From the NCBI GenBank assembly GCA_023427085.1, contig JAEZBO010000241.1:256-64255 (forward strand): DNA of 64,000 nt. Direction: 5' to 3'. Below the pieces are notes generated by a model that had not been told where the DNA came from, ran no database searches, and was given only the letters and a program-made list of their open reading frames with translations. The stretch is from Pseudomonadota bacterium (lineage in GTDB: Bacteria; Pseudomonadota; Gammaproteobacteria; Burkholderiales; Burkholderiaceae_B). The position numbers and the translations under genes were made by a program. Position 1 is the first letter of the stretch, and each line of letters opens with the position of its first letter. Shown piece after piece: positions 21,633-45,633 of this stretch.

Positions 21633-21662
21633 GGATATCCTTGGCTGAGGGCGGCGTGCCGT

Positions 21663-22493: not shown

Positions 22494-22765
22494 GCCAGCG
22501 CCCTGCGGATCGCGACCGCGACGGCCTCGGCCGAGAAGCCGAACATCTCGACGTCCTTGGGCAGGGCCAGCTGGATCGCCAGCGCGATCTCGGTCTCACT
22601 GGCATCGGCCGCCAGGCCTTCGAGCGCGGCGTCGATCTGCGCCAGCGCCTCGGGCGGCTCGAGGAAAAAGTCGCCGCTGATCTGGACGCGCGTCAGCTTG
22701 CCGTCGTCGACCTCGAGGTCGGCGACCACCAGCTTGCCGCCGGGTACCTTGAATTCACCGTGCAT
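22490..22765 (-). CDS. Stand-alone lipoate-protein ligase accessory (LplA C-terminal-type) domain protein, LplB-like
   Basis: 91 aa from ATG at 22765 (the ORF-track ORF extends to 23242). KVPGGKLVVADLEVDDGKLTRVQISGDFFLEP resembles the LplA C-terminal domain. 4-nt ATGA overlap with the catalytic gene. Confidence 0.65.
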   Translation of the reverse strand: MHGEFKVPGGKLVVADLEVDDGKLTRVQISGDFFLEPPEALAQIDAALEGLAADASETEIALAIQLALPKDVEMFGFSAEAVAVAIRRALA

Positions 22766-22836
22766 GTCGTTGTCTGCCTGCTGCTGTCTGGAGGATGGGC
22801 CGGGGCGGGTATGCCCCGGGCGGGTCCGGGTCGGGC

Positions 22837-23538: not shown

Positions 23539-23589
23539 CGTGGCAGCCTCGCGGGATGGAAGAAGAATGGCACCGGTCGCTCGGGCCGA

Positions 23590-24090
23590 TCAGGCCGCGC
23601 CGGCGGGCGCGCGCAGCGCGGCCTCGATGTCGGCGCGCAGCGATGCCGGTGTGTCGGTCGGCGCGTAGCGCCTGGCGACCTGGCCGTCACGGCCGACCAG
23701 GAACTTGGTGAAGTTCCATTTGATCGCCTCGGTGCCCAGCAGGCCGGGCTTTTCGTTTTTCAGCCAGCGGTACAGCGGATCGGCGTGTTCGCCGTTGACC
23801 TCGATCTTGGCGAACAGCGGGAAGGTCACGCCAAAACGCGCGGTGCAGAACTCGCGGATCTCGGCTTCGTCGCCGGGCTCTTGCCGGCCGAACTGGTCGC
23901 AAGGAAAGCCCAGCACCACCAGGCCTTGCGGGCCGTATTCGCGGTACAGCGCCTCGAGCCCTTCGTATTGCGGCGTGAAGCCGCAGCGCGAGGCCACGTT
24001 GACGACCAGCAGCACCTTGCCGCCGAACTCGGCCAGCGCGCGCGGCTCGCCGTGGATGTCTCTGACGGTGTAGTCTACGATTGAAGTCAT
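23590..24090 (-). CDS. Glutathione peroxidase
   Basis: ATG at 24090. LVVNVASRCGFTPQY with peroxidatic Cys, and the WNFTKFLV motif. Confidence 0.9.
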   Translation of the reverse strand: MTSIVDYTVRDIHGEPRALAEFGGKVLLVVNVASRCGFTPQYEGLEALYREYGPQGLVVLGFPCDQFGRQEPGDEAEIREFCTARFGVTFPLFAKIEVNGEHADPLYRWLKNEKPGLLGTEAIKWNFTKFLVGRDGQVARRYAPTDTPASLRADIEAALRAPAGAA

Positions 24091-24191
24091 GAGGCGCGGG
24101 GCTCCGTGCTGGATGTCTCGAAAACCCACGTGGCGCGCGGGCCGTTGTCAGCCTGCGCCGTCCGCGGCGGTGCCAACCAGTTTATCAATCT

Positions 24192-24515
24192 ATGCCATCC
24201 TTGATCGACCGTCTGCAGGCTATGTACGAACAGGGCCACGACAATCTGCTGCTGCGCTTTTCGCTCGGCAAGGGCTACGCCGAGCAGGACCGACCAGAAC
24301 TCGCTCGCCAGCATCTCGAAGCGGCGGTGGTCTTCGACCCTGATCATTCGGCGGCCTGGAAATGGCTGGGCCGCGCGTGCCTGGCGCTCGACGACCCGGC
24401 GGCCGCACGGCAGGCCTGGACCGCCGGCCTGGCCGCGGCCGAGCGGCGCGGCGACGCCCAGTCGGCCAAGGAAATCCAGATCTTCATCAAGCGGCTGGAC
24501 AAGGCCGGCCACTGA
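24192..24515 (+). CDS. Small tetratricopeptide-repeat protein
   Basis: 107 aa with TPR-like helices (LGKGYAEQDRPELARQHLEAAVVFDPDHSAAWKWLGRA). Confidence 0.6.
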   Translation: MPSLIDRLQAMYEQGHDNLLLRFSLGKGYAEQDRPELARQHLEAAVVFDPDHSAAWKWLGRACLALDDPAAARQAWTAGLAAAERRGDAQSAKEIQIFIKRLDKAGH

Positions 24516-24558
24516 GGCCGGGTGCACGGCCGCGCCGCGCTTGCGGCGCCGACTGGCC

Positions 24559-25971
24559 TCACTTGAGTCCGCTGAACGCATCGATGGCACGCTGGCGGCT
24601 CGATTTCAGGTCGACCCGCGCGGCGGGGTAATCGCAGGCCCGGCGCTGCGCGGCACTGGGTTCGTGGATGCTCTTGTCGTCGAGCTCGGCCAGCTCGGGC
24701 AGCCAGCGGCGCAGGAAATGCCCGCGCGGATCGAAGCGCTGGGACTGCGACACCGGATTGAAGACCCTGAAATACGGCGCCGCGTCGGCCCCGGTCGACG
24801 CCGACCATTGCCAGCCGCCGTTGTTCGAGGCCAGGTCACCGTCGACCAGATGCTGCATGAACCAGGCCTCGCCCAGCCGCCAGTCGATCAGCAGGTTCTT
24901 GGACAGGAACATCGCACTGACCATGCGCAGCCGGTTGTGCATCCAGCCAGTCTCGAGCAACTGCCGCATCGCCGCGTCGACGATCGGCACGCCGGTGCGG
25001 CCCTGTTGCCAGGCCTGCAGATCGTCGGGGGCATCGCGCCAGCGCACCTGCGCGGTCTCGGGCCGCATCGGCTGGTGCATCGACAGTTGTGGAAAGCCGG
25101 CTAGCAGGTGCAGATAGAAGTCGCGCCACAACAATTCGGTGATCCAGGTCTGGATGCCGGCATTGCCGCTGTCGAGTTCGCCGTGGTTGGCCGCCAGCGC
25201 CGCGCGCAGGCACTGGCCGGGCGACAGCACGCCGGCGGCCAGGTACGGCGACAGGCGGCTGGTGCCGTCACGCGCGGGAATGTCGCGCGCCTGTTGGTAG
25301 TCGTCGATGGCCGAGCCGACGAAGTTGGCCAGCGCCGCGTCGGCGGCCTCTTCGCCCTCGGGCCAGCGCTGCTGCAGGGCCGGGGACGGCGCCTGGTAAC
25401 CGTCCAGTTTCGCCGGAAAGCGCCCGGCGCTGGCCGGCTGCGATGACAGGGGAGGCGCCGCGATCGGCTGCAGCGGCGCCTCGCGCAGCAGGCTGCGGCA
25501 GCGTTTGGCGAACGGCGTGAAGACCTTGTAGTAGTCGCCCGCGCCGGTCTGCACCGAACCAGGCGGCAGCAAGGTGGCGCCGTGATAACCGAGGAATCCG
25601 ATGCCGTCCTGCTGCAGCCGCTGGCCGACCGCCCGGTCGCGCTTGCGTTCGTTGACCGCGTATTCGATGTTGCAATGCACCGTCTCGACGCCCAGCTTGC
25701 GGCACAGATCTGCGATCAGGTCGGGGGCCTGCGACCAGGTGTCGGCCTGCAGCACGTGCATCGCGATGCCGCGTTCGGCCAGCGCCTTGGCCTGCGCGCG
25801 GGCATTGCGCAACCAGAAATCGACCTTGACCGGCGCATCGCCGTGCCGCAACCACTGGCCTGGCGCGACCAGGTAGACGGCATGGGTCGGGCCGTCCTGG
25901 GCGGCGTTGTACAGAGCGGGGTTATCGAACACGCGCAGGTCGGTGCGGGCCCAGTAAAGACTAGCCATCAA
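24559..25971 (-). CDS. phrB: Deoxyribodipyrimidine photolyase
   Basis: 470 aa. WARTDLRVFDNPAL N-terminus and FAD-binding region WREFY-type (LLWRDFY), MHNRLRM, and GGWQW. Confidence 0.9.
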   Translation of the reverse strand: MMASLYWARTDLRVFDNPALYNAAQDGPTHAVYLVAPGQWLRHGDAPVKVDFWLRNARAQAKALAERGIAMHVLQADTWSQAPDLIADLCRKLGVETVHCNIEYAVNERKRDRAVGQRLQQDGIGFLGYHGATLLPPGSVQTGAGDYYKVFTPFAKRCRSLLREAPLQPIAAPPLSSQPASAGRFPAKLDGYQAPSPALQQRWPEGEEAADAALANFVGSAIDDYQQARDIPARDGTSRLSPYLAAGVLSPGQCLRAALAANHGELDSGNAGIQTWITELLWRDFYLHLLAGFPQLSMHQPMRPETAQVRWRDAPDDLQAWQQGRTGVPIVDAAMRQLLETGWMHNRLRMVSAMFLSKNLLIDWRLGEAWFMQHLVDGDLASNNGGWQWSASTGADAAPYFRVFNPVSQSQRFDPRGHFLRRWLPELAELDDKSIHEPSAAQRRACDYPAARVDLKSSRQRAIDAFSGLK

Positions 25972-25992
25972 AAAATCCTGGAATGCAGAAGA

Positions 25993-26556
25993 TCAGCGGG
26001 CCGCCTGGCCCTGCCTGGCGCGCCAGTCGCGCACGGCCTGCAAGGTGTTGCTGACGTGCTGGTGCGGGTTGCCGCTGGCGTATTCGTAGACGATCCGGCC
26101 CTCGGGCGAGATCACGTACGAGACCCGGTTGGCCACACCGGGCAGCACGGCGTGCGCCACGTCGTAGTCCTTCATGATGCGATGGTCGCTGTCGGACGCG
26201 ACCGCGAACTTGCCGCCGCAGGCGCTGACGGAAAACTTGCCGAGGGTCTGGATGTCGTCGCCCGAGACGCCGACCACGGTGGCGCCTTCGGCCTGGTAGT
26301 CGCCGATGGCCTGCGCGAAGCTGTTGGCCTCGATGGTGCAACCCTGCGTAAAGGCAGCCGGATAGAAATAGAGCACGACCGGTCCCTTTTTCAGCGCCTC
26401 GGCCAGCTTGAACTCGAAGGGTTGGCCGGCCAGCGCGGCCTGCGCGGTGAAATCGGGCGCTTGCGCGCCGACCTCGAGCGCGGCGTGGGCGGGCAGGGTG
26501 GCCAGCGGCAGCACCAGGGCCAGGGCGAAGGCGTAACGGCGCGGCAGCAGGGACAT
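25993..26556 (-). CDS. Exported peroxiredoxin (AhpC/TSA-Bcp family)
   Basis: 187 aa. Signal peptide, APDFTA, and YFYPAAFTQGCT peroxidatic-Cys motif. Confidence 0.8.
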   Translation of the reverse strand: MSLLPRRYAFALALVLPLATLPAHAALEVGAQAPDFTAQAALAGQPFEFKLAEALKKGPVVLYFYPAAFTQGCTIEANSFAQAIGDYQAEGATVVGVSGDDIQTLGKFSVSACGGKFAVASDSDHRIMKDYDVAHAVLPGVANRVSYVISPEGRIVYEYASGNPHQHVSNTLQAVRDWRARQGQAAR

Positions 26557-26715
26557 GGTGGCTCTCCGAAAAAGATAGCCGCATCATGCCACGGGCGCGC
26601 GGCGTGCCGCCAGACGGGCTGCATTCGCTTACGTATGACACTTGACGCCCGTGGCCGCCGGCGCGAGGCTTGGACCAGGTGCCGCCACTGGCGCCGCTAC
26701 TTGCCAAAGGTTCCG

Positions 26716-27297
26716 ATGAAAGCCGTGTACACGATCACGCTGTTCTGCCTGGCCGCCGCGTTGCCGACGGCCCAGTCGGCGCGCGCGCAACCGGCCCCGT
26801 ACCACGCCGATCAGGCCGACCCGGTGTTGCGCACCTTGCCGGTCACGCCGGCGCCGGCGCAGTCGCCATTTCTGTATCGTCCACGGGCCGAGGCGCCGCG
26901 CGCCGTGCCGGCGCCGGTTTACGAAGGGCCGGTGGCGCAGGTGTTCCCGGCCCATCCCGGCCCGGTGTCGCGGCCCGGCCAGGGGTATCCGAGCCGGCCG
27001 TCGCCGTATTCGTCGATCACGCCGCCGGGCTCGGTGGCAGCGCCGGCCAATCCGGCCTCGCCCAGCGTGCCCCGCGCGCCGTCGGTCGGCACCCGGCCCT
27101 CGGTCAACCCGGGCGCGGTGCCCGACAAGGTCTACCGCACGCCGGGCAATGCGCCGCCACGCAACCGGCCGGCCTATTCGGCGCCCGGTCACATCCACGT
27201 CCAGCCGGTGGTGCCGATGCAGCCGCAGCGGCCGCATCGGCCCGGCCAGAACTATCCCTACCGGCCGTTGCCGCCACCGAGATATCCCGGCCGCTAG
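26716..27297 (+). CDS. Secreted proline-rich low-complexity protein (hypothetical)
   Basis: ATG at 26716 within the artefactual 571-aa ORF. Signal peptide MKAVYTITLFCLAAALPTAQSARA. The mature part is about one quarter Pro (my count 45 of about 169). G/C-rich third positions. Followed by a strong terminator. Confidence 0.55.
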   Translation: MKAVYTITLFCLAAALPTAQSARAQPAPYHADQADPVLRTLPVTPAPAQSPFLYRPRAEAPRAVPAPVYEGPVAQVFPAHPGPVSRPGQGYPSRPSPYSSITPPGSVAAPANPASPSVPRAPSVGTRPSVNPGAVPDKVYRTPGNAPPRNRPAYSAPGHIHVQPVVPMQPQRPHRPGQNYPYRPLPPPRYPGR

Positions 27298-27369
27298 CGC
27301 CAGGCGTCACGCGCACGCTGCCAGCCGGTCAGCCTCGCGCCGCCCGACGCCGCAGCCGTCTGGTCGAAA

Positions 27370-27416
27370 TAAAAAAAGGGTCATGTGCCGCCGTGAGCGG
27401 CCTATGACCCTTTTGG
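27370..27416. terminator. Bidirectional rho-independent terminator
   Basis: A7-GGGTCAT-gt-GCCGC-cgtga-GCGGC-ct-ATGACCC-TTTTGG between the convergent proline-rich and DoxX genes. Confidence 0.75.
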
Positions 27417-27466
27417 TTTGCCAGGCTCGGGCCGGCGCGGGGCGCTGGCCCGGCCGCGCGGCCGGC

Positions 27467-27856
27467 TCAGCGGCGGCTCAGGCCGTAACGGCCGCCACCC
27501 ATCAGCGCGATCGCGATCGAACCGAACAGGAACAGGCCCTGCAGCTCGAGGCGCCAGCCGCCGGTGTTGGTGAACTGGCCCAGGTGGCTCATGTGCGCCA
27601 GCAGGATCGCGACCAGCATGTTGATGGCGATGATCAGCGCGGCGGGGCGCGTGAACAGGCCGATGATCAGCAGGATCGGGGCGATCAGCTCGCCGACGTA
27701 GACACCGTAGGCAAAAAAGGCCGGCAGGCCGGCGCCGGTCACCATGCCTTCGATGCCGCCGATGCCATTGGCGAGCTTGTAGAGGCCGTGGAATAGCATC
27801 AGGATGCCGATGCTCAGTCGCAGTACCAGTTTGCCCGCGTCGTCATGGGTGGACAT
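27467..27856 (-). CDS. DoxX-family membrane protein
   Basis: 129 aa, four hydrophobic segments. LRLSIGILMLFHGLYKL is typical of DoxX. Confidence 0.75.
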   Translation of the reverse strand: MSTHDDAGKLVLRLSIGILMLFHGLYKLANGIGGIEGMVTGAGLPAFFAYGVYVGELIAPILLIIGLFTRPAALIIAINMLVAILLAHMSHLGQFTNTGGWRLELQGLFLFGSIAIALMGGGRYGLSRR

Positions 27857-27927
27857 ATTGTTATTCCTCAGTCGTATGCGTAGGGAAAAGAAATGAATGG
27901 AACAGAAACCTGCGCGAAGTTAGCAGG

Positions 27928-29337
27928 TCAACGTGACCCCTGCAATATCGACCTTGCATCCATCAGGCGCATCCGGAACGCCTTGCCCTTGATCGAGCCG
28001 GCCGCCAGCCGCGCGCGCGCCTGCTCGGCGACCTGCCGATCGAGCGCCACGTAGGACACGTTTTCGCCGACGCTGATCTTGCCGACCTGCTCCTTGCTCA
28101 GGCCCGCATCGCCGGTCAGCGCGCCCAGCAGGTCGCCGGGACGCAGCTTCTGTTTCTTGCCGCCCTGGATGCACAGCGTCACCCGCGGCGCGCGCATCGG
28201 CCCGCCGCCCTTGGGTGCCAGCGCGCCGATATCGGCCCACTTGAGCGGCGTGCCCAGCATCTTTTCGACCAGCGTGGCCCAGCGCATCTCGTTGGGCGCG
28301 CACAGGTTCAGCGCCAGGCCGGGCTTGTCGCCACGGCCGGTGCGGCCGATGCGGTGCACGTGGACCTCGGTGTCCTTGGTGACGTCGACGTTGATGACGG
28401 TGTCCAGCCCGGTGATATCCAGGCCGCGCGCCGCCACGTCGGTCGCCACCAGGATCGCGCAACTCTGGTTGGCGAACTGCACCAGGATCTCGTCGCGGTC
28501 GCGCTGCTCGAGCTCGCCATGCAAGGGCAGGGCGCTGTAACCGGCCTGGTCCAGGAACAGCGCCAGCTCGTCGCAGGCCGCGCGGGTGTTGCAGAAAGCC
28601 AGCGTCGATTCGGGCCGGTAGTGCGCCAGCAGCTTGAGCACGCTGTCGTAGCGCGCCTCGCGCGGGATCTCGAAAAAGATCTGCTCGATGCGGCTGTCGT
28701 CGTGCAGCGCCTCGACCTTGACCTCGATCGGCCGGTTCAGGAAACGCAGGCCGATGCCGCGCGCCGGACCGGCATAGGTCGCCGAGAACAGCAGGGTCTG
28801 GCGCGGTGTCGGGCAATGGCTGGCGATGATCTCGATCTGTTCGCCGAAACCCATGTCGAGCATGCGGTCGGCCTCGTCCAGCACCAGCATGCGCAAGGCA
28901 CCGAGCTCGAGGCTGCCGCGCGACAGATGGTCGGCCAGCCGGCCCGGCGTGCCGACCACGATGTGCGCGCCGTGCGCCAGCGACTCGGCCTGCGGCCGCA
29001 GCGGCGTGCCGCCGCACAGGCTGACGATCTTTATGTTGCCGCTGGCCCGTGCCAGCCGGCGCAGCTCGGCGGCGACCTGGTCGGCCAGTTCGCGGGTCGG
29101 GCACAGCACCAGGCCCTGCGGGTCGAAATTGCGGGCGTCCAGGCCGGCCAGCAAGCCGAGCCCGAACGCGGCGGTCTTGCCGCTGCCGGTCTTGGCCTGG
29201 GCCATCACGTCGCGGCCGGCCAGGATGTGCGGCAGGCTTTCGGCCTGGATCGGCGTCATGGCGGTAAAGCCCAGCGTGCTCAGGTTGTCGAGCAGCACGG
29301 GGGGCAGGGGCAGGCGGGAGAAGGCGTTGTCGGTCAC
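27928..29337 (-). CDS. dbpA: ATP-dependent DEAD-box RNA helicase DbpA
   Basis: GTG at 29337 gives an N-terminus (VTDNAFSRLPLPPVLLDNLSTLGFTAMTPIQ) colinear with E. coli DbpA. AKTGSGKT, DEAD, SAT, and HRIGRTGR motifs. C-terminal DbpA RNA-binding domain. No obvious SD. Confidence 0.85.
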   Translation of the reverse strand: MTDNAFSRLPLPPVLLDNLSTLGFTAMTPIQAESLPHILAGRDVMAQAKTGSGKTAAFGLGLLAGLDARNFDPQGLVLCPTRELADQVAAELRRLARASGNIKIVSLCGGTPLRPQAESLAHGAHIVVGTPGRLADHLSRGSLELGALRMLVLDEADRMLDMGFGEQIEIIASHCPTPRQTLLFSATYAGPARGIGLRFLNRPIEVKVEALHDDSRIEQIFFEIPREARYDSVLKLLAHYRPESTLAFCNTRAACDELALFLDQAGYSALPLHGELEQRDRDEILVQFANQSCAILVATDVAARGLDITGLDTVINVDVTKDTEVHVHRIGRTGRGDKPGLALNLCAPNEMRWATLVEKMLGTPLKWADIGALAPKGGGPMRAPRVTLCIQGGKKQKLRPGDLLGALTGDAGLSKEQVGKISVGENVSYVALDRQVAEQARARLAAGSIKGKAFRMRLMDARSILQGSR

Positions 29338-29531
29338 GGCGGGGGGATTCAAAAGAAAAGCAAGGTATCGGCAGGTACCGACATTCTGCCCGATCCGGGC
29401 GCCGCCGGTGCGGCGCGCTGGCGCGGCCCTCACCGGCGGACACGCCGATTCCATCCGGATACCTGGCAGCGCGCCGTGCGAAGCGCTACGATCGACACAT
29501 CCTCAACCCCGAACGCGTCCAGGAGTCGACC

Positions 29532-29732
29532 ATGACGGACCCCGCAGGATCGCGCGACGCGCGTATCGAATTGCAGGTCACCGAGCCCGACGCGGGCCAG
29601 TGGGAATGGCGCATCGTCCGGCTCAAGGACGATGGCACGCCGGGAGAACTGCTGGGCTCCGAACTGGGCTACGGCAGCCAGCTCGAGGCGCAGCACGCCG
29701 GCAAGGTCGCGCTGGATCTGCTGGCGGCCTGA
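29532..29732 (+). CDS. Small hypothetical protein (66 aa)
   Basis: AGGAG 8 nt upstream of the ATG and G/C-rich third positions. No domain recognised with confidence. Confidence 0.45.
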   Translation: MTDPAGSRDARIELQVTEPDAGQWEWRIVRLKDDGTPGELLGSELGYGSQLEAQHAGKVALDLLAA

Positions 29733-29882
29733 GCCGCGCGTCGTCGCCAGCCCGCGCCCGGCGCCGGCGCCGGGCCGGATTCCCTGCACGCCGCGACACA
29801 GACTGCCCGCCATGCCCGGCGCCCCCCGGGCGCGCCGGCCAGGGTTAAGATTCGCTTCATTTCCGTTGGCTATACCTGCCGC

Positions 29883-30539
29883 ATGCGTATATTGCTGGCC
29901 GAAGACGATCTGTCGCTGGGCGACACCCTCAAATCCTGGCTGAGCCTGGACGGCCACGCGGTCGACTGGGTCCAGCGCGGCGACCAGGCCGACACGGCGC
30001 TGCGCAGCCACGACTACGACTGCGTGCTGCTGGACCGCGGCTTGCCCGGCCTCGAGGGCGACGCGCTGCTGGCGGCGCTGCGGGCGCGGCGCGACGGCAC
30101 GCCGGTGCTGCTGATCACCGCCCGCGACGGCGTCAGCGACCGCGTGCAGGGCCTGGACCTGGGCGCCGACGACTATCTGGTCAAACCCTTCGATCTCGAC
30201 GAACTATCGGCGCGCATCCGCGCCGCCACGCGCCGCCATGACGGCCAGACCAGCGTCGTGCTCAGCCACGGCGAGCTGGCGCTGGACCCGGCCGCCAAAC
30301 GGGTCACCCGCGCCGGTGCCGACGTCACCTTGACCGCGCGCGAGTTCGCCGTGCTGCACGCGCTGATCCGCCGGCCCGGCCACGTGGTCTCGCGCGAGCA
30401 GATCGAACAGGCGCTGTACGGCTGGGGCGACGAGGTCGAAAGCAACGCCATCGAAGTGCACATCTACAACCTGCGCAAGAAGCTCGGCAGCCAAGCCATC
30501 GCGACGATCCGTCGCCAGGGCTATCGGCTGGAAGCCTGA
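29883..30539 (+). CDS. OmpR/QseB-type two-component response regulator
   Basis: 218 aa. Receiver domain (ILLAEDD...DCVLLDRGLPGLEG) plus winged-helix output (LTAREFAVLHAL...IEVHIYNLRKKL). Confidence 0.9.
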   Translation: MRILLAEDDLSLGDTLKSWLSLDGHAVDWVQRGDQADTALRSHDYDCVLLDRGLPGLEGDALLAALRARRDGTPVLLITARDGVSDRVQGLDLGADDYLVKPFDLDELSARIRAATRRHDGQTSVVLSHGELALDPAAKRVTRAGADVTLTAREFAVLHALIRRPGHVVSREQIEQALYGWGDEVESNAIEVHIYNLRKKLGSQAIATIRRQGYRLEA

Positions 30540-31966
30540 TGGCGGCCCGCCCCGACGCCGCGTCGCCCGGCCCGCGCGCCTACTCGCTGCGGCGCCGGCT
30601 GACGCTGGCCACGCTGGGATCGAGCATCCTGTGCGCGCTGGTCAGCCTGGCGATCGTGGTCTGGGTGGCCTGGGACGAGACCAGCGAAGTCTTCGACGAT
30701 GCGCTCGAAGAGGGCGCGCGGCTGACGCTGGCGCTGGGCGCCTCGATGGCGCAGGAAGGCCTGCTGGACGACGCGCCGTCGGTCGACGAACCGCGCAAGC
30801 GCGTGCGTCTCTATTACCAGTTGATCTCGGATCGCGGCGAGGTCGTGCGCCGCGCCGAGGGCGCGCCGTCGCGGCCCTTCGTCGATCCCGACAAACGCGA
30901 CGATCGTTACTACAACGTCTGGGAAGACGGCGAGCTGTGGCGCGTCTACGTGCTCGAGCACGAGGATCCGGACTTTTCGGTGCAGGTCGGCCAGCGCTGG
31001 GAAGCGCGCAACGAGCTGCTGGTCGAAACCATCGAAGCGCTGGTCTGGCCGGCGCTGGCGATCTGGCTGCTGCTGGGCCTGTTCAACTGGTGGGCGATCC
31101 GGCGCCTGCTGCGGCCGCTCGAACAGGTCGCGCGCGGCATCGCCACCAAGTCGCCGCAAGACCTCGGCCCGGTGCCCGACAGCGGCCGCGTCAAGGAGCT
31201 GCGGCCGGTGGTGCAGGCGCTGAACCAGTTGCTGGCGCGGCTCTCGGGCGCGCTCGAGGCCGAACGGCGCTTCACCGCCGATGCCGCCCACGAGCTGCGC
31301 ACGCCGCTGGCCGCGCTGGGCTCGAAGATCCAGCTGATGCAGCGCAGCCACGCCGGCGCGGTGCCGGCACTGGACGGCGACCTGGCCGCGCTGCGCAAGG
31401 ACGTGGCGCGCAGCACCGCGCTGGTCGAGAACCTCTTGGTGCTGGCGCGGCTCGATGCGCACGACGCGCCGCAGGGCAGTGCCGGCTATACGCCACAGCC
31501 GGTCAAGCTGCCCGAGCTGCTGCGCGAAGCCGTGTTGGCCTGCCAGGCGCAGGCCGACGACCGCGGCGTGCGCCTGCAGGTGCAGTGCGACGCGATGACG
31601 GTGCCGGGCCAGCATCCCTTGCTGTTCACGGCGCTGCGCAACCTGATCGACAACGCGGTGCGCTACGGCAGGCAGGGCGGCCAGGTGCGCGTGTCGGCAC
31701 GGCGAGAGCAGGGCGGCCATCGGCACGGCAGGGTGGTGCTCGAGGTCTGCGACGACGGCCCCGGCGTGGCGCCGGCCGAGCTGGAACGGTTGACGCAACG
31801 TTTCTATCGGGTGCTGGGCAACCAGGCCAGCGGCAGCGGACTGGGCCTGTCCATCGTCGCGCGCATCGCCGCGCTGCACGGCGCCGAGCTGTCCTTGGGC
31901 GCCGGGCGGGACGGGCAGGGACTGTGCGCGCGGCTGGTATTCGAACCGGACGCGCCGGCTCGCTAA
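30539..31966 (+). CDS. Two-component sensor histidine kinase
   Basis: 475 aa. Two TM segments, H-box FTADAAHELRTPL, N-box LIDNAVRYG, and G-box GSGLGLSIV. The start overlaps the regulator stop. Confidence 0.9.
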   Translation: MAARPDAASPGPRAYSLRRRLTLATLGSSILCALVSLAIVVWVAWDETSEVFDDALEEGARLTLALGASMAQEGLLDDAPSVDEPRKRVRLYYQLISDRGEVVRRAEGAPSRPFVDPDKRDDRYYNVWEDGELWRVYVLEHEDPDFSVQVGQRWEARNELLVETIEALVWPALAIWLLLGLFNWWAIRRLLRPLEQVARGIATKSPQDLGPVPDSGRVKELRPVVQALNQLLARLSGALEAERRFTADAAHELRTPLAALGSKIQLMQRSHAGAVPALDGDLAALRKDVARSTALVENLLVLARLDAHDAPQGSAGYTPQPVKLPELLREAVLACQAQADDRGVRLQVQCDAMTVPGQHPLLFTALRNLIDNAVRYGRQGGQVRVSARREQGGHRHGRVVLEVCDDGPGVAPAELERLTQRFYRVLGNQASGSGLGLSIVARIAALHGAELSLGAGRDGQGLCARLVFEPDAPAR

Positions 31967-33454: not shown

Positions 33455-33482
33455 AATACGCATAATGTATATTATGAGAAGT
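33455..33482 (+). other. dif: Candidate dif site (XerC arm AATACGCATAA, core TGTATA, XerD arm TTATGAGAAGT)
   Basis: 18 consecutive bp (CGCATAA-TGTATA-TTATG) are identical to E. coli dif GGTGCGCATAATGTATATTATGTTAAAT. Intergenic and AT-rich. Lies between the last + strand GGGCAGGG (31913) and the first CCCTGCCC (35437) of a complete KOPS-like polarity switch. Confidence 0.75.
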
Positions 33483-35099: not shown

Positions 35100-36146
35100 T
35101 CATCCAGGCGCCCCGCCCTGCTTCACCGGCCATGTATCCGCCAGCCGGTAACCCGCCGGCCAGGGATCGGCCGGATCGAGCAGATGTTGATGAATGCCGG
35201 TCACCCAGGCGCGGCCGCTGATCTGCGGGCGGATCGCCGCGATGCCGCCGATCGCCGTGGTGCCCAGGATCCGCCCATGGAATTCGGAGTCGATGATGGA
35301 CACGCCGGTATAGCGGTCGCCGACCGCCATCAGGCCGCGGTGATGCAGCAGCGCCATGCTGGCGCAGACCGCCGTGCCGGTCGGCGACCGATCCAGCTTG
35401 CCGGGCTGGATCGAGACCACCGATTTGGCCCGCAGGCCCTGCCCGTCGCGATACAGCGGACCGGCGAACAGGCAGAACGAGTGATGCTGCCAATCCGCGC
35501 GCTCGGGATGATGAAACACCAGTTGCTGGTTGGCCGCGTTCGTGATTCGGACGCCCAGCTCGGCCAGTTGCCTGGCGTGGCGGGCCTCCAGCTGCAGGCC
35601 CAGCGCCTGCGCGTCGACCACCACGAAACTGTCGCCGCCGTAGGCGGTGTCGACGACGATCGGACCCAGACCGGGCACGTCCAGCGAGACGTCGAGCTGC
35701 CCGGCGAACGACGCGACGTTCTCGACGGTGATGCGTTCGGCCTTGCCGGCGGCTCAATCGGCGCGCACGCGCACCAGTCCGCCGGGCGCCTCGAGCACCA
35801 TCTCGGTGACGGGCTCTTGCATGGCGACGATGCCTGTGTCGAGCAGGACCGTGGCGACGCAGATCGCATTCGATCCCGACATCGGCGGCGTGTCCTCCGG
35901 CTCCATGATGATCCACGCGGCGTGTGCGTCGGGATGCCGGGGCGGCACCAGCAGGTTGACGTGCCGGAACACGCCGCCGCGCGGTTCGTTGAGCACGAAG
36001 TGTCGCAGTGTCTGGTCGTGGGCGATCCAGCTGCGCTGTTCCCACAGCGTGTCGCCGGGCGGCGCGGCGACGCCGCCCACGATGACGTCACCGACCTCGC
36101 CTTCCGCGTGGCAGGACACGACATGGATCACTTTGGTGGACCGCAT
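35100..36146 (-). pseudogene. Proline racemase/hydroxyproline epimerase-superfamily gene interrupted by one in-frame TGA (35754-35756)
   Basis: ORFs 35754-36146 (N-terminal part) and 35100-35678 (C-terminal part) are in the same frame. The 25 codons between them are open (AAGKAERITVENVASFAGQLDVSLD). Joined length of about 348 codons fits the family. Confidence 0.7.
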
Positions 36147-36213
36147 CCTGACCTCCTGTCAGCAGAGAAAAAGCCGGGCCAGGCCACCGCATGGCCGGAC
36201 GCGCCGGCGACGC

Positions 36214-37041
36214 CTAGCCGGCGATGGCCTCGACCTTGAACGCCCGCTTCATCCGGTAGATCGTCGACGGCCCCAGCCACTTGTCGAAGATCGCGCCGAT
36301 GGCACCGGAGCGGTCGAGTTCGGCCAACGCCTGGTTGACCGCCGCCAGCAAGGCCGGCTGGTTCTTGCGCACGCCGACGCCCCAGACTTCGCGGCCGATG
36401 GCGGGCTGCAGCACCCGGTAGTCGTCCGCGCGATCGCCCAGTTTGTTGATGAGCTTGCGCAACACCTCCTCGGATTGGGTGATCGCCTCGACGCGCCGTT
36501 GCGCCAGCGCCGTAAACGCGGTCGGCGCGTCGTCGTAGCCGACCGGCCTGGCGCTAGGCAGCACGGCGGCGACGTAGTCGGCGCTGATGCTGCCCTTGAC
36601 GTCGCTGATGCGCTGGCCGGCCAGATCGGCGACCGTCTGGTAGGCGCTGTCGCGGCGGCTCACCAGCACGTTCTCGCTGACGTAATACGCCAAGGAGTAG
36701 TCGACCTGCTCGGCACGCTGCGCAGTATGGGCCAGCCCGGCCGCCAGCACGTCCATGTGTCCTTGCTGCAAGGCAGGAATCCGCGCCTCGATCGACACGG
36801 GCTTGAGTTCGACCCGGACGCCCAGCCGCTGGCCCAGCGCCTTGCAGATGTCGACGTCGTAGCCGACCACCGCGCGCTCGGCGGGATCGACGAAGCCGAA
36901 GGGTTCGAAGATGTCGATGACACCGCACACCAGTACTCCCTTGGTCTTGATGTCGGCGAGCTGGTCGGCGCGCGCGCCGCCGGCCAGGCACAGCGTGGCC
37001 AGCCCGGCCGATAGAACGATCTTCATCCAGTCATGCTTCAT
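36214..37041 (-). CDS. Polar amino-acid ABC transporter substrate-binding protein (family 3)
   Basis: ATG at 37041. Signal peptide, then LADIKTKGVLVCGV...GYDVDICKAL, typical of SBP_bac_3. Confidence 0.85.
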   Translation of the reverse strand: MKHDWMKIVLSAGLATLCLAGGARADQLADIKTKGVLVCGVIDIFEPFGFVDPAERAVVGYDVDICKALGQRLGVRVELKPVSIEARIPALQQGHMDVLAAGLAHTAQRAEQVDYSLAYYVSENVLVSRRDSAYQTVADLAGQRISDVKGSISADYVAAVLPSARPVGYDDAPTAFTALAQRRVEAITQSEEVLRKLINKLGDRADDYRVLQPAIGREVWGVGVRKNQPALLAAVNQALAELDRSGAIGAIFDKWLGPSTIYRMKRAFKVEAIAG

Positions 37042-37150
37042 CGACGTCTCCAGTTGACGCAGTGGTTCACTGCCTGAAAGCCGCGGTGCGAGCCGCGTCG
37101 CGGCCTGTCGCGTGCAGCGCTGCCGGCGTGAGTCATTCGCGCCGGGCCGG

Positions 37151-37921
37151 CTATCTGCGCAGGTCCGACAGGAAAGCCTGGGCACGCGGATGCGCCGGTG
37201 CGTCGAAGAAGGTCTGCGGGTCGGCACGCTCAAGTATTTCTCCGTGATCCATGAACCAGACCTGGTCCGCGACGTCGCGCGCGAACTTCATCTCGTGCGT
37301 GACGCACACCATCGTCATGCCGTCGCGCGCCAGCGCCTTCATGACGGCCAGCACTTCGCCGACCATCTCCGGATCGAGCGCGCTGGTCGGTTCGTCGAAC
37401 AGCATCACCGGCGGATTCATGGCCAAGGCGCGCGCGATCGCCACCCGTTGCTGCTGACCGCCCGAAAGCTGGTTGGGGTATGCATGCGCCTTGTGTTCGA
37501 GGCCGACCTTGGAGAGCAGCGCCAGCGCGGTGTCGCGAGCGCCGGCCCGCGACACCTTGCCGACCCAGATCGGACCGCTGCAGACGTTCTCCAGTACCGA
37601 CAGATGAGGAAACAGGTTGAACGACTGGAAGACAAAACCGATACGGCTGCGCACCCGGTTGATGTCGGTCTGTTTGCCTTGCACGTCGTGGCCGTCGACA
37701 TGGATGCTGCCGGCGTCGATGACCTCGAGCCGGTTCATGGCGCGGATCAGCGTGGACTTGCCGGAGCCGGAGGGACCGCACAGCACGACCACCCGGCCGC
37801 GCTCGACCACGGCATCGATGCGTTTCAGGGCGTGGTAGTCGCCGTACCATTTTTCTACCGCCACCAGCTGGATCATCGGCGCCGGAACGGTGGACAAACT
37901 ATCGGATGCGCGAGGGTTCAT
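37151..37921 (-). CDS. Amino-acid ABC transporter ATP-binding protein
   Basis: 256 aa. Walker [10 protein letters not shown], signature [15 protein letters not shown], and Walker [12 protein letters not shown]. Alternative start at 37876. Confidence 0.9.
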
Positions 37922-37923
37922 GG

Positions 37924-38655
37924 TCAGCGGGCCGCGGCGGCGGTGGTCGGCGAGGATGGGCGGACGAGCGGTCGCTGCTGCCGGCGGGCGAGACGCCGTT
38001 CGAGCACGCCGGCCAGTTGCGTCAGCGCGAAGCAGATGACGAAGTAGATCAGCGACAGCAGCAGGAAGACCTCGAACGGACGCGTCAGCACGCTGCTGTT
38101 GACCTGGTTGGCGGCATAGGTCAGTTCGTGCACGCCGATCACATAGCCCAGCGAGGTGTCCTTGATGGTCGTGACGAACTGCCCGACCGTGCTGGGCAGC
38201 ATGTTCGCCAGCGCCTGCGGCAGGATGATCCGACGCAGTCGCACGGGATAGGCCATGCCCAGCGCGGCGGCGGCCTCGGCCTGCCCGGCCGGCAGGCCCT
38301 GGATGCCGGCGCGCACGATCTCGGCCAGATAGGCCGCCTGGAACACCACCAGCGTGATCGCCATGGTCGTGAAGCCGGCCAGCGGGCGCCCGAGCATCAA
38401 CGGCACGACGAAGTAGACGCCGAAGATCAGCATCACCAGCGGAATGCTGCGCAGCAGCCAGCCCAGCATGGTCGCGGGCAGGCGTAGCACCCGGCGCGCG
38501 CTGAGCTGTGCGAGCGCCATCAGCACGCCCAGCGGAAAGGCCAGGCCGATGCCGATCAGCGACAGCAGCAAGGTCGCGGCCACGCCGCCGAGCGGGCCAT
38601 TGGGATAGACGCCGATGGCGAACAGCAAGCCATACTGCGTGAGGATCTCGAGCAT
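37924..38655 (-). CDS. Amino-acid ABC transporter permease
   Basis: 243 aa, His/Glu/Gln/Arg-type permease with EAAAALG and [16 protein letters not shown] motifs. Confidence 0.85.
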
Positions 38656-38658
38656 GAG

Positions 38659-39342
38659 CTAGCGTCCCGGGATGCGGCTCAGCCTGGCGGCCCAGGCACC
38701 GGCGGCCAGCAAGGCCAGTGCGACCAGCACGTACATCGCGGTGCTGAGTCCGTAGGATTCGAAGATCCTGAAACTCTTGTTGGCGGCATCCTTGCTGGCG
38801 TAGGTCAGCTCCATCACGCCGGTGACCATGGCCAGTCCGGTGGTCTTGACCAGCATGACCGCGCCGCTGGTCAGCGGCGGAATCGACACCCGCAGCGCCT
38901 GCGGCAGGACCACGCGCCGCAGCGCACCGAACTGGCCCAGGCCCAGTGCGCGGGCAGCCTCCAGCTGACCGGACGCCACGCTGCGCAGGCCGCTGCGCAG
39001 ATCCTCGGACAGGTAGGCGCCGTAATACAGGCCGATCGCGATGGCGGCGAACCAGAATTCGCCGTGGTTGTCATTGAGCCAGCTCTGCGGACCGGCCGGC
39101 AGCATGTTGGCCACGCCGAAGTACCACAGGAAGATGTGGACCAGCGGCGGCACGTTGCGCTGGTACTCGATGAAAGCCACCACCAGCCAGGCGCCCACCC
39201 GCGAGCCCGTGACCCGCAGCAGGGTCAGGCCGATGCCCAGCGCGAAGGCCAGCAGCCAGCTGAGCGCCGACAGCAGCAGGGTCAGTTGCAGGCCGGCCCA
39301 GAACAGCGGACCGTATTCGGCGAGAAAACGCATCGTGGGCAT
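38659..39342 (-). CDS. Amino-acid ABC transporter permease
   Basis: ATG at 39342 or 39333 (the ORF-track ORF extends to 39684). EAARALG and [16 protein letters not shown] motifs. Confidence 0.85.
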
Positions 39343-39658
39343 CCCGGTGGCGAGAAGACGTGGTTCGATGGCGCTGCGCCGCGCGGCAGCGCGAGACGGC
39401 TCAGGCCGGGCCAGCAAGCTGGGCGTCCCGGCGGCGCGGCTGCAACCGGAACAGGTCGATATCCGATCCAGTTGGCGGCGAAGCTGGTGCACAGTACGCC
39501 CATTCGGCCGGCGTTCGCCCTGGGGTTTGCCCGAGTTTTGACTATCTGTGGTAATTTGAACTAACCAATTTGGCGGACGCTTTCGGAATGCCACCACGGC
39601 AGTGGTCCGGTGACGGCCGTGCCGCCATACCCTCGCGTCAGCGCGACTTTCGATCCCG

Positions 39659-40390
39659 ATGATGGACAGCAGATTCAGGCCCAAACAGATTTACGAGCAG
39701 GTCGCCGACCAGATCCGCGCGGCGATCGGCAGCGGCGCCTATCCAGCGGGCTCGCGCCTGCCTTCCGAGCGCGATCTGGCGCAGCGCCTGAATGTCAGCC
39801 GGCCCGCGGTACGCGAAGCGATAGGCTCGCTGCAGAATGCCGGCCTGGTCATCACCCGCCATGGCTCGGGCACGTACGTGACCGGCGCTCGCGACGCGCC
39901 GGCCGACGCCGCCCGCCCGATCCCCGCGGCTGCCCGTCCGGTGCCCGCGGCCGACATCAGCCCCATCAGCATCCTGCGCGCGCGCCTGATCATCGAGCCG
40001 GCGGTCGCGCGGCTGGCGGCGCAACGCGGCCAGCGCGATGCGCAGGCCGAACACCATCTGGAAAGCATGGCGCAGGTCCAGGACATCACCGACCCCCATC
40101 AGCAGCAGCTATGGAGTGAAAGCGACCGGCTGTTTCATCGGCAGATCGCGGTGATGACCGGCGATCCGCTGCTGATCAGCATCGCCGACGAGCTGGCCGA
40201 CAGCATGAACCAGCCGCTGTGGCATCGGCTGCGCGACGATGGCATCTACGACGCGGCGCGCATCCGGCTGTATGTGGCCGAACATCAATTGATCTACGAG
40301 GCCATCGTCTCGGGCGACGCGGACGCCGCGGCGTTCTATGTCGAGGGACATCTGCGGCGCGTGGAGCGCGACATCGCCACGCGCGAGTGA
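39659..40390 (+). CDS. GntR/FadR-family transcriptional regulator
   Basis: 243 aa. Winged HTH (LPSERDLAQRLNVSRPAVREAIGSLQNAGLVITRHGSGTYV) plus an FCD-type C-terminal domain. Confidence 0.9.
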   Translation: MMDSRFRPKQIYEQVADQIRAAIGSGAYPAGSRLPSERDLAQRLNVSRPAVREAIGSLQNAGLVITRHGSGTYVTGARDAPADAARPIPAAARPVPAADISPISILRARLIIEPAVARLAAQRGQRDAQAEHHLESMAQVQDITDPHQQQLWSESDRLFHRQIAVMTGDPLLISIADELADSMNQPLWHRLRDDGIYDAARIRLYVAEHQLIYEAIVSGDADAAAFYVEGHLRRVERDIATRE

Positions 40391-40480
40391 CATCGCCACG
40401 GTCGAGTGACGCCGTCACGCGTGAGTCACATCGTCACGCGCGACTGACATCGCCGCGCGAGTGACGCCGCCACGGCGGCG
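40371..40480. repeat. About 5.5 tandem copies of a 19-bp unit (ACATCGCCACGCGCGAGTG)
   Basis: Unit 1 is the last 19 nt of the GntR CDS up to its TGA. Degenerate copies follow at 40390, 40409, 40428, 40447 and 40464. Confidence 0.7.
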
Positions 40481-40491
40481 CCCTGCCCGCC

Positions 40492-41298
40492 TCAATAGCG
40501 CAGCTTGTCGTCGCGCCCGGCCGCTGCCGCCTGGACCAATGCCCGGGTGATGATGCTGGTCGAGACGTTGGCGAAGTAGCGCGCGCCCCAGGCGCCGTAC
40601 TTTTTTTCGTCCTCGGGCGTCAGCGCGATGATGCCAGGGCACTTGCCGGCCGCCGCGATGGCCTTGAGGCCGCGTTCGATGGCGGCCTGCACCGGCGCGG
40701 CGTTCCAGTCGCTGCCATGGCCCATCGCGTGGGCCAGGTCGTTGGGGCCGATGAAGCCGACGTCCACGCCATCGACCGCGGCGATTTCGCCAGCCACCTC
40801 GATGGCTTCCGGTGTCTCGATCATGACGACCAGCGCCACGCCGTCGTTGCTGCGCTGCGTATGCGCGGCACCGCCGAACGCGCCGTAACCGGCCGCGCGG
40901 GTGCTGAACGCGCAGCCACGCCGGCCGATCGGCGGATAGCGCACCAGGTCGGCCAGCCGGCGCGCCTGCGCGGCGCTGTCGACCATCGGGATCTGCACCG
41001 CGCTGGCGCCCATGTCGAGGATGCGCGGCAGGTCGTGCTCGAAGCAGCGCACGATCGGCGCGATGCCGGCGGCGCGCGCGGCCCGCAACATGTGCTCGGT
41101 GGCGCCGAAGTCGGCGCTGCCGTGCTCATTGTCGAGGATGATGAAATCGAAGCCGGCATAGCCGCACATCTCAACCAGCGCCGGGCTGGGGATGCCGTTG
41201 AACAGGCCGCGCAGCGGCTGGCCGCCGCGCAGCGCGGCTGGCAGGCTGCCATCGAAGGGATGATGGGGTGGGTTCATCGAAGCTCCTGGTTCGGTCAT
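40492..41298 (-). CDS. HpcH/HpaI-family aldolase
   Basis: Start at 41298 or 41277. TIM-barrel aldolase pattern (FDFIILDNEHG, VRCFEHD, IETPEAI, FIGPNDLA). Confidence 0.8.
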   Translation of the reverse strand: MTEPGASMNPPHHPFDGSLPAALRGGQPLRGLFNGIPSPALVEMCGYAGFDFIILDNEHGSADFGATEHMLRAARAAGIAPIVRCFEHDLPRILDMGASAVQIPMVDSAAQARRLADLVRYPPIGRRGCAFSTRAAGYGAFGGAAHTQRSNDGVALVVMIETPEAIEVAGEIAAVDGVDVGFIGPNDLAHAMGHGSDWNAAPVQAAIERGLKAIAAAGKCPGIIALTPEDEKKYGAWGARYFANVSTSIITRALVQAAAAGRDDKLRY

Positions 41299-41305
41299 GG
41301 CGCAA

Positions 41306-42295
41306 TCAGTCGGCCTGGATGCCGGCATCCTCGATGACCTTGCGCCATTTGTCCATTTCGCTGCGCTGAAACGCACTGAACTCGGCCGGGCCGCGGCCGT
41401 CGGGCGCGACGCCCAGCGACAGCAGCTTGGCCTGCACCGCCGGATCCTTCAGCGACGCGGCGATCTCGCGCGCCAGCCGTTCGACCACCGGTGCCGGCGT
41501 GCCGGCCGGCGCAAAGATGCCCTGCCACGACTGCATCGCAAAACCGGGCAGGCCCAGCTCGGCCAGCGGCTTGACGCCCGGCAGGTCGGCCAGCGGTTCG
41601 GCCGACGTGACCCCCAGCACCTTGACGCGCTTGGCGTCGATCATCGGCCGGGCCGCCGCGACGGTGTCGAACACCATGTCGATCTGGCCGCCGATCAGGT
41701 CGACCATCGATTGCGAGCCGCCCTTGTAGACGATCTGGCGCAGCTTGGTATCCGAGATCGACTGGAACAGCTGGCCCGACAGATGCTGCGAGGTGCCGGC
41801 GCCGGCGGTGCCGTAGGTCAGCGCTTCCGGTTTGGCGCGGGCCTCGTCGATGACCTGCTGGACCGTGTCGAAGCGGCTGTCGGCCCGCACCACCAACGCG
41901 TTGCTGACCATGCCCACCAGCGCGACCGGCGCGAAGTCCTTGACCGGGTCGTAGGACAGCGACTTGATGAAGAAAGGGTTGACCGCGTGGGTGGTGATGG
42001 TGCCGCCGACGATGGTGTAGCCGTCGGCGGGCGAGCGCGCCACCTGCTGGGTGCCGACCACGCCGGACACGCCGGGCTTGTTCTCGATGATGACCGACTG
42101 CCCCAGCCGGGCGGTGAGCTGCTCGGCCATCAACCGCGCCACGCCGTCGGACACGCCGCCCGGCGAGAACGGCACGATGTAGCGCACCGGCTTGGTCGGC
42201 CAGTCCGACGCGCTGCCCTGGGCCTGCGCCGGCGCCATGGCCAGCGTCAACAGGCTGGCGGCGGTCCACGAAAACAGCTTTGAGGTGCTACGCAT
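41306..42295 (-). CDS. Bug-family (TctC-like) tripartite tricarboxylate transporter substrate-binding protein
   Basis: 329 aa. Signal peptide, then WPTKPVRYIVPFSPGGVSD and YGTAGAGTSQHL, typical of the Bordetella uptake gene family. Confidence 0.9.
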   Translation of the reverse strand: MRSTSKLFSWTAASLLTLAMAPAQAQGSASDWPTKPVRYIVPFSPGGVSDGVARLMAEQLTARLGQSVIIENKPGVSGVVGTQQVARSPADGYTIVGGTITTHAVNPFFIKSLSYDPVKDFAPVALVGMVSNALVVRADSRFDTVQQVIDEARAKPEALTYGTAGAGTSQHLSGQLFQSISDTKLRQIVYKGGSQSMVDLIGGQIDMVFDTVAAARPMIDAKRVKVLGVTSAEPLADLPGVKPLAELGLPGFAMQSWQGIFAPAGTPAPVVERLAREIAASLKDPAVQAKLLSLGVAPDGRGPAEFSAFQRSEMDKWRKVIEDAGIQAD

Positions 42296-42353
42296 GAAAA
42301 TGTCTCCTGGTTTTTTGTCTGGGCGGCGTCGGGCCGCCCGGGGTTCTTGATGC

Positions 42354-43373
42354 TTAATGCGGACTGGCGGCGCGGACGGTGCCGCGCTCGATCAATTCGA
42401 TGGGCACGACGATGTCGCGCGGGCGCAGCTCGGCATGCATCTGTTCGCACAGCAGCGCGACGGTGGCCTCGACCATGGGCTCGACGCACTGGCGCACCGT
42501 GCTCAGGTCGTAGGCGGCCCACGCGGCCTGCGGCACGTCGTCGAAACCGACCACCGCGACGTCCTGCGGCACGCGCTGGCCCAGTTCCTGGCGCAGCACG
42601 TCCAGGCAGGCGATCGCCATGTGGTCGTTGGCGACGAACAGCGCATCCGGCGCATCGTGCGCGAACATCTCGCGGGTGGCCTGCTTGGCGCGTTCGAAGT
42701 CGTAGTGGCCGGCGGCGCGACTGTGCAGCGTGTGGCCCAACGCGGCCAGCGCATCGCAGAAGCCGCGTTCGCGCTCCAGGCTGGTCGACGAATCCTCGAG
42801 CCCGGCCAGAAAGCCGAAGCGCCGGTAGCCGCGCGCGGCCAGCAGATGCGCCACGGCCTGTCCGCCGGCGTGGTTGTCGGAGGTGACCGAGCTGCTGGCG
42901 TGCAAGGCCAGGCCGCCCAGCGACGAGGTGCGGTTGAACTGCAGCACCGGCACGCCGACCTCGGCGCAGTTGCGCGCCAGTTCGGGCGACAGCATCGCCG
43001 AAGCCATGACGATGCCGTCGACCTGGTATTCGAGGATCTCGGCCAGCACGTCGTCGCCGGCGTCCTCGAGCTCGGCGATGAACATCAGCACGTGATAGCC
43101 CTCTTTCTGCAGCCGCTGCGAAAGCCGCTGCATGACCAGCGGGTAGAACTGGTTCTCGAGGTAGGTCATGACCAGCGCGACGATGCGGCTGCGCCGCGTG
43201 ATCAGGCTGCGCGCCAGCGCATTGGGCCGGTAGCCGAGCTTTTGCGCGGCCGCCAGCACTTTGCGGCGGGTCTGCTCCGAGACGCTGGCGCCGGGCGTGA
43301 AGGTGCGGCTGACGGCCGACTGCGACACCTGGGCCAGGTCGGCCACGTCCTGGGCGCGCGGCGCGGTCTTCAT
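42354..43373 (-). CDS. LacI-family transcriptional regulator
   Basis: 339 aa from ATG at 43373 (the ORF-track ORF runs on to 43946 out of context). HTH DVADLAQVSQSAVSRTF and periplasmic-binding-fold core. Confidence 0.9.
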   Translation of the reverse strand: MKTAPRAQDVADLAQVSQSAVSRTFTPGASVSEQTRRKVLAAAQKLGYRPNALARSLITRRSRIVALVMTYLENQFYPLVMQRLSQRLQKEGYHVLMFIAELEDAGDDVLAEILEYQVDGIVMASAMLSPELARNCAEVGVPVLQFNRTSSLGGLALHASSSVTSDNHAGGQAVAHLLAARGYRRFGFLAGLEDSSTSLERERGFCDALAALGHTLHSRAAGHYDFERAKQATREMFAHDAPDALFVANDHMAIACLDVLRQELGQRVPQDVAVVGFDDVPQAAWAAYDLSTVRQCVEPMVEATVALLCEQMHAELRPRDIVVPIELIERGTVRAASPH

Positions 43374-44137
43374 GCGGCGGTCCAGCCGGCGTCGAGCATC
43401 AGCGCGCTGCCGGTGACCAGGCTGGATGCATCGCCGGCCAGGAACACCACGGCGCCCATGACCTCGTGCAGCTGGCCGACACGGCCCAGCGCGTTGCGCG
43501 CGCAGACCCAGTCGTGAAAGCCCGGCTGCGCCAGCATCGGCGCGGTCATCGGGGTTTCGATGAAGGTCGGGCAGATCGTGTTGACGCGGATACCCGACGG
43601 GCCGAGCTCCCAGGCCAGCGCCTTGGTGAAGCCTTCGATCGCGTGTTTGCTGGCGCAATACAGCGTGCGGCGCGGACTGCCGACATGGCCCATCTGCGAG
43701 GACACGTTGATCAGCGAGCCGGACCGCTGCTCGGCCAGCAGGCGGCGCGCCACCGCGCGGCTGACCGTGAAGCTGGCCTTGACGTTGAGGTCGAACACCG
43801 CGTCGAAGTCCGGCTCGGGCTGGTCGACCATCAGCTGCGGCCGGTTCATGCCGGCGTTGTTGACGAGGATGTCGAAGACCCTGCCCTGCCCCAGCTCGCG
43901 GTCCACCGCGGCGCTGTCGGTCACGTCCAGCACCCGCCATTCGCAATCGATGGCCTCGGCGCGCAGCGCCTCGCAGACCGCGACCAATTCGGCTTCGCGC
44001 CGCGCCGCCACCGTCACGTGCGCGCCGGCGCGGCCCAGCGCCGCGGCGGCCGCCAGGCCGATGCCGCCACTGCCGCCGGTGACCAGCGCGCTGCGCCCGT
44101 CGAGCCGAAAGCTCGGGCCTTGGGGCAACGGCATCAT
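43370..44137 (-). CDS. Short-chain dehydrogenase/reductase (SDR)
   Basis: 255 aa from ATG at 44137. [12 protein letters not shown], and YCASK catalytic motif. ATGA overlaps with both neighbours. Confidence 0.85.
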
Positions 44138-45453: not shown

Positions 45454-45500
45454 GCGCAGGTCCTGGTCGGCGAAGTGAAGATGGCGCCACTTTCCGATCC

Positions 45501-45600: not shown

Positions 45601-45633
45601 ATTTCCCGATACCAAAAACCACGCTGGGGAGAC

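Follow-up and report, generated by a model that had tools for sequence, protein, structure and literature searches.

The analysed DNA (hereafter the window, meaning the whole stretch of 64 kb, with a GC content of about 68%) carries a gene for an LtnD-like protein and, beside it, a gene for a protein of the Lipocalin_5 family (PF13924). The LtnD-like product is about 80% identical to proteins named L-threonate dehydrogenase. The two genes are separated by an intergenic gap of 141 bp, which runs from the start of the LtnD-like gene to the stop codon of the lipocalin-like gene, and the 28 bases AATACGCATAATGTATATTATGAGAAGT are read within this gap at 33455–33482. They divide into AATACGCATAA-TGTATA-TTATGAGAAGT, an 11-6-11 layout with inner dyad symmetry between CATAA and TTATG (Table 1). 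The open reading frames that overlap these bases are spurious frames, most of which also overlap the two real flanking genes. An earlier note on this DNA had described the 28-mer as having the architecture of dif, sharing 18 consecutive bases with the dif of Escherichia coli and lying in a 141-bp ltnD/lipocalin gap in one of the few AT-rich spots of the window. The sequence at 33455–33482 has this architecture, the shared run is present, the gap agrees with the ORF coordinates (32416–33348 and 33490–34008), and 14 AT-rich spots were counted in the window, the site being one of them.

Table 1. Features of the dif-like site and its surroundings, with positions in the window.
Feature	Position	Strand	Remarks
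Predicted XerC-binding arm, AATACGCATAA	33455..33465	+	Same 11 bases in the dif-like sites of Achromobacter pulmonis (L031) and Bordetella petrii (L062), among others
Central region of 6 bp, TGTATA, place of strand exchange	33466..33471	+	Identical in the dif of E. coli, Bordetella and Orrella
Predicted XerD-binding arm, TTATGAGAAGT, variant A23 and G24	33472..33482	+	Differs from the Alcaligenaceae arm TTATGTAAAGT at positions 23-24 only
LtnD-like gene, XerC side, 310 aa	32416..33348	-	Start codon 107 bp from the site
Lipocalin_5 (PF13924) gene, XerD side, 172 aa	33490..34008	-	7 bases between the site and the stop codon
Left replichore end, 9 GGGNAGGG motifs	469..31920	+	All directed at the site; at 469, 13237, 13242, 21600, 22559, 26491, 28525, 29302, 31913
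Right replichore end, 10 GGGNAGGG motifs	35437..62879	-	All directed at the site; at 35437, 40481, 43879, 43884, 47857, 49087, 54867, 56729, 62559, 62872

Two further observations concern the composition of the DNA at and away from the site. A 7-bp inverted repeat (AATACGC ... GCGTATT, at 33455–33461 and 33484–33490) brackets the site, and because it is missing at the locus of Orrella and at other loci with the same variant arm, it is probably coincidental. The most AT-rich spot of the window is a coding one at 17838–17940, where 27 of 30 bases are A or T; it covers the end of a TatD-like ORF (17114–17896), whose C-terminus is rich in Lys and Asn, and the part of an ankyrin-repeat ORF (17896–18558) that encodes the signal peptide.

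The site is identical to E. coli dif at 22 of 28 positions, 18 of which form an unbroken run (CGCATAA-TGTATA-TTATG). The identity is 25/28 with AATTCGCATAATGTATATTATGTAAAGT, the dif predicted for Bordetella bronchiseptica and Bordetella pertussis, and also 25/28 with AATACGCATAATGAATATTATGTAAAGT, predicted for Bordetella avium, both as given in the PMC3025954 supplement and in PMC2731167. It reaches 26/28 with AATACGCATAATGTATATTATGTAAAGT, found in A. pulmonis, B. petrii and others. The inner CGCATAA of the XerC arm is kept in all relatives, and the outer four bases differ among them, a variability that is usual for dif (PMC2731167). As a chance baseline, the best identity was recorded in each of 200 dinucleotide-preserving shuffles of the window; the shuffles gave 15–19 identical positions with the dif of E. 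coli or B. pertussis, against the observed 22 and 25. The runner-up match to E. coli dif in the window has 16/28 and the reverse strand of the site itself 18/28. No second CATAA-N6-TTATG core was found elsewhere on either strand of the 64-kb window, even with one mismatch allowed, and the related contigs likewise hold one dif-like match each. A weak dif-like 28-mer at 17893–17920 was considered and rejected, as its 16/28 identity to E. coli dif falls in the chance range, it is coding, and no KOPS switch occurs there.

The strand distribution of the KOPS-like motif GGGNAGGG gives further evidence. It occurs 19 times in the window against 9.8 ± 3.0 expected, an over-representation of about two-fold, and all 19 copies converge on the site with zero exceptions (p ~4.5e-5 under random strand assignment). 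With nine copies on the forward strand to the left and ten on the reverse strand to the right, the polarity must switch within the 3.5-kb interval that holds the site, just as the earlier note had proposed. When 4083 octamers were ranked without bias, GGGCAGGG was the sole fully convergent one (8/0/0/8) among the top-ranked skewed octamers. Moreover, GGGNAGGG motifs around at least 120 dif-bearing genome loci divide into 184 convergent vs 24 divergent, which shows that KOPS can serve as a criterion in these taxa.

The earlier note had gone further and taken the site to define where the replication terminus lies, and this is too strong. The GC skew of the window is +0.006 left of the site and −0.008 right of it, which is the expected sign at a level that is not significant (z = 1.45). 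Within the 64 kb, the cumulative G−C curve forms a plateau from about 32 to 44 kb with its maximum at 43.9 kb rather than at the site, and the gene-strand bias is in the expected direction, weak and not significant. Replication termination need not coincide exactly with dif (PMC3025954; PMC6199493). Since the skew of the window is not significant, the site is better described as the point of dimer resolution and KOPS convergence than as the exact end of replication.

The window makes up almost the whole of a metagenome contig of 64,185 bp (ENA ERZ27269073, k141_609657), and the affiliation of the host can be judged from the proteins encoded nearby. DbpA, encoded 4 kb from the site, is 68–70% identical to proteins of Alcaligenaceae, with Bordetella, Achromobacter, Castellaniella and Pigmentiphaga as the named best matches, and no database protein exceeds 70% identity to it. 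For the lipocalin-like protein, the identity to proteins from Orrella dioscoreae and from several Bordetella species is 71–77%. Together with the presence of TctC-family genes, these similarities point to an uncultured lineage in or near Alcaligenaceae. The genes xerC, xerD and ftsK were absent from the annotated 21 kb around the site.

Two other genes in the surroundings deserve mention in their own right. The LtnD-like gene (32416–33348) is about 12 kb from the OtnK gene for 3-oxo-tetronate kinase (45547–46920), with the dif site between them, and in the one homologue context examined (L124) the OtnK gene adjoins ltnD. A gene of the proline racemase family on the reverse strand (35100–36158), whose best PDB matches are 4k8l, 1tm0 and 4k7g (E ~1e-148), is broken by a single in-frame TGA at 35754–35756 that aligns with a Cys of the solved homologues, and the gene is split likewise in the gene calls of two assemblies (L001, L002). 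As the RNA following the TGA folds no better than shuffled sequences (z = +0.95), a nonsense mutation, and thus a pseudogene, is likelier than selenocysteine.

A scan with CGCATAATGTATATTATGNNAAGT, taking one genome per species, gave at least 120 loci, many of them in Alcaligenaceae. In seven of the relatives (L090, L046 of Zwartia panacis, L033, L029, L074, L040 and L112), the canonical dif adjoins a block of genes for glutathione peroxidase, photolyase, AhpC/redoxin and DoxX, the proteins of which are 55–64% identical to those encoded at 23590–27919 of the window. The XerC arm is toward this block in all seven relatives and likewise in the window, where dbpA, a two-component system, a BOF-domain gene and ltnD intervene between doxX and the site. 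This arrangement characterizes part of the family only. Around dbpA of B. avium, B. bronchiseptica and Achromobacter denitrificans, a dif-like site is missing within 10 kb and the locus is away from the middle of the chromosome, with the dbpA-doxX-ahpC-photolyase block lying far from it in A. denitrificans and B. avium; terminus synteny is accordingly not shared by these genera. Similarly, dif is missing within 10 kb of the LysR-SDR-lipocalin modules in Bordetella ansorpii, in Bordetella genomosp. 13 and on a 613-kb metagenome contig, and KOPS polarity is uniform around them. The homologues of LtnD were tried as synteny markers and set aside as uninformative, being about 80% identical, widespread in Comamonadaceae-like bacteria and found in unrelated contexts. 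One of the loci examined (L059, 6558–6581 of JABIJM010000002.1) has a dif of the proteobacterial type, ACGGCGCATAATGTATATTATGCGAAGT, in a contig labelled 'Candidatus Woesearchaeota archaeon', which may be a mis-binned bacterial contig.

The sole departure of the site from the family pattern is AG in place of TA or TT at positions 23–24 of the XerD arm. Among the matches listed from the sample of at least 120 genome loci, none has AG at these positions, and for this reason a decayed or element-derived copy was considered. A scan of metagenomes for GCATAATGTATATTATGAGAAG, however, revealed the variant arm in nine contigs with a GC content of 56–68%, three of which are Orrella-like and 0.83–1.15 Mb long, with L132 being 98.8% identical to Orrella dioscoreae. 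The KOPS around the sites of these nine contigs are 16 convergent and 2 divergent. Compared with the window, the 28-mers of the variant-arm contigs are 82–93% identical, whereas the 30-bp flanks are only 13–37% identical. The record of Orrella dioscoreae (LT907988.1), reached via the homologue of the lipocalin, has the unannotated sequence TATTCGCATAATGTATATTATGAGAAGT at 2,490,347–2,490,374. This is 51.4% of the 4,848,101-bp record, which is mid-chromosome if the record starts near oriC, and 10 of the 11 nearby KOPS are convergent there. Positions 23 and 24 belong to the more variable part of the XerD arm in Proteobacteria, in which A25 is highly conserved (PMC2731167, Carnoy & Roten), and the site of the window retains A25. 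The recurrence of the variant arm between unconserved flanks, at variable positions and with A25 retained, argues for a conserved lineage-specific form of dif and against decay. Judged by these sequence comparisons, the arm TTATGAGAAGT is a conserved lineage-specific variant at tolerated positions. A more far-reaching proposal is that TTATGAGAAGT has become fixed in a clade comprising the Orrella lineage and several uncultured Burkholderiales-like contigs, where a changed DNA-recognition surface of XerD may match it or where the binding of XerD may be weakened and the control by FtsK altered. This is speculative and rather unlikely; if an altered XerD surface or a weakened binding were true, it would be a natural case of coevolution between a recombinase and its site.

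From this evidence, we conclude with a probability of about 0.93 that the bases 33455–33482 are the chromosomal dif of a betaproteobacterium that is uncultured, resembles Alcaligenaceae and has Orrella, Bordetella and Achromobacter among its relatives. The conclusion is based on the observed sequence and its uniqueness in the window, the convergence of KOPS, a position that matches the dif of relatives, and the clade-wide conservation of the variant arm. By analogy, the site would be bound by XerC and XerD, would act in dependence on FtsK and would lie opposite oriC. Following the E. coli paradigm, XerC would bind AATACGCATAA and XerD would bind TTATGAGAAGT. A chromosome dimer formed after replication would contain two copies of dif, and FtsK at the septum would read GGGCAGGG from both sides and pump the DNA until the two copies meet. 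XerD, activated by FtsK, would then perform the first strand exchange across TGTATA and XerC would finish the reaction, so that the dimer is resolved.

A multimer-resolution site of a secondary replicon, either the dif of a chromid or megaplasmid or a plasmid site of the cer/psi type, is a highly improbable reading of the same bases. It draws on the fact that many Burkholderiales have two to three replicons with a dif of their own on each (PMC3025954 supplement), that a contig of 64 kb cannot give the size of its replicon, and that some genes of the window have fragmentary matches on the chromids of Variovorax and Cupriavidus. Against this, the canonical spacer TGTATA is that of chromosome I in Cupriavidus taiwanensis and Ralstonia eutropha H16 and the spacer of chromosome II differs, a contrast which, among the entries of the PMC3025954 supplement that were compared, does not hold for every secondary replicon. 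A near-match search of a plasmid collection with the 23 kb around the site gave gene fragments only, the coverage of this DNA by any plasmid or chromid record being 14% at most. In addition, the window contains the core metabolism genes ppsA, gdhA, glgA, a hisD-like gene and dbpA, and positions 5–28 of the site are identical on the 4.85-Mb record of Orrella, with the Orrella-like carriers being 0.83–1.15 Mb long. A site on a secondary replicon would still be a dif.

Integrative mobile elements exploiting Xer (IMEX), for example CTX-phi and the gonococcal genetic island, yield divergent second copies of dif when they integrate. The changes in the XerD arm could accordingly mark a hybrid or pseudo-dif at the border of such an element, that is, a non-functional element-derived copy, the real dif being elsewhere. 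The difference at two positions from all of the at least 120 sampled genome loci would fit such an origin, as would the lipocalin-LysR module, which is on the opposite side of dif in Orrella and so suggests a local rearrangement. However, a second dif-like site is absent for 33 kb leftward and 30 kb rightward, and the neighbouring 21 kb (±10 kb) hold genes for metabolism and regulation but none for phage functions, an integrase or type IV secretion. The variant arm is unmatched in 2.9 million viral contigs, and the 64 kb show no pair of dif-like sites of the kind that brackets phage or conjugation genes in IMEX. The polarity of KOPS switches at the site with no disrupted stretch, and the same arm is located at the mid-chromosome KOPS convergence of Orrella and is conserved in contigs of 56–68% GC. 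An element-derived copy is thus highly improbable as well. One last reading takes the site as a chance AT-rich palindrome with a role in transcription, be it at the start of the ltnD-like gene (promoter, operator) or at the end of the lipocalin-like gene (terminator). Its place 107 bp upstream of one start codon and 7 bases past the other gene's stop codon and the resemblance of the core hexamers to a −10 promoter element would suit this role. However, scanning 33200–33700 for consensus elements of sigma-70-type promoters and intrinsic terminators gave none, the shuffles never came near 22–25/28, KOPS converge at the site, and the conservation of the same 24–28 bases beside entirely different genes in other genomes effectively refutes this reading.

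The chromosomal dif recognized here is an ordinary feature of a well-understood kind, a previously unannotated example with a minor variant of the XerD arm common to Orrella, and the understanding of dif, XerCD and FtsK is unchanged by it. The site marks where dimers are resolved and where the two replichores meet in the genome of an uncultured Alcaligenaceae-like bacterium, which is of modest practical value for orienting and scaffolding the metagenome-assembled genome and for reading its strand asymmetries. It also documents the dif variant A23, G24, which is common to the culturable plant symbiont Orrella dioscoreae.

Among the known systems, the attachment sites of IMEX and the plasmid sites cer and psi have the same architecture of a recombinase-binding core. 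In contrast to these, the site of the window has the canonical TGTATA spacer and lies at a convergence of KOPS, and it is free of accessory sequences, mobile-element genes and a second site. The dif of E. coli, GGTGCGCATAATGTATATTATGTTAAAT, is the same in its 11-6-11 layout, in the run of 18 bases within 22/28 identical positions and in its location where the polarity of GGGNAGGG converges; it differs at positions 1, 2 and 4 of the XerC arm and by T23A, T24G and A27G in the XerD arm. Closer still is the predicted dif of Bordetella and Achromobacter, AAT[TA]CGCATAATGTATATTATGTAAAGT (Carnoy & Roten 2009, PMC2731167; Kono et al. 2011, PMC3025954; L031, L062), with 25–26 of 28 identical positions, the same AAT start and AAGT end that typify the family, and a family-level lineage shared according to the similarity of DbpA and the lipocalin. 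The difference is TA at positions 23–24, where the window has AG, and the dbpA-doxX-ahpC-photolyase block, which adjoins dif in the window, lies far from the middle of the chromosome in both A. denitrificans and B. avium. The site of Orrella dioscoreae (LT907988.1) is identical to that of the window at positions 5–28, including TTATGAGAAGT, the KOPS converge at both, and the BOF-domain and ChaA-like genes keep their sides, whereas the outer four bases of the XerC arm differ and the flanking DNA is unrelated. In Orrella, the lipocalin-LysR module (8163–10519 of L139) is found 3.4 kb from dif on the XerC side, as opposed to the XerD side in the window (33490–35061). As this module switches sides and the BOF-domain and ChaA-like genes do not, a single inversion spanning dif does not account for the difference, which suggests small-scale movement of genes across the terminus.
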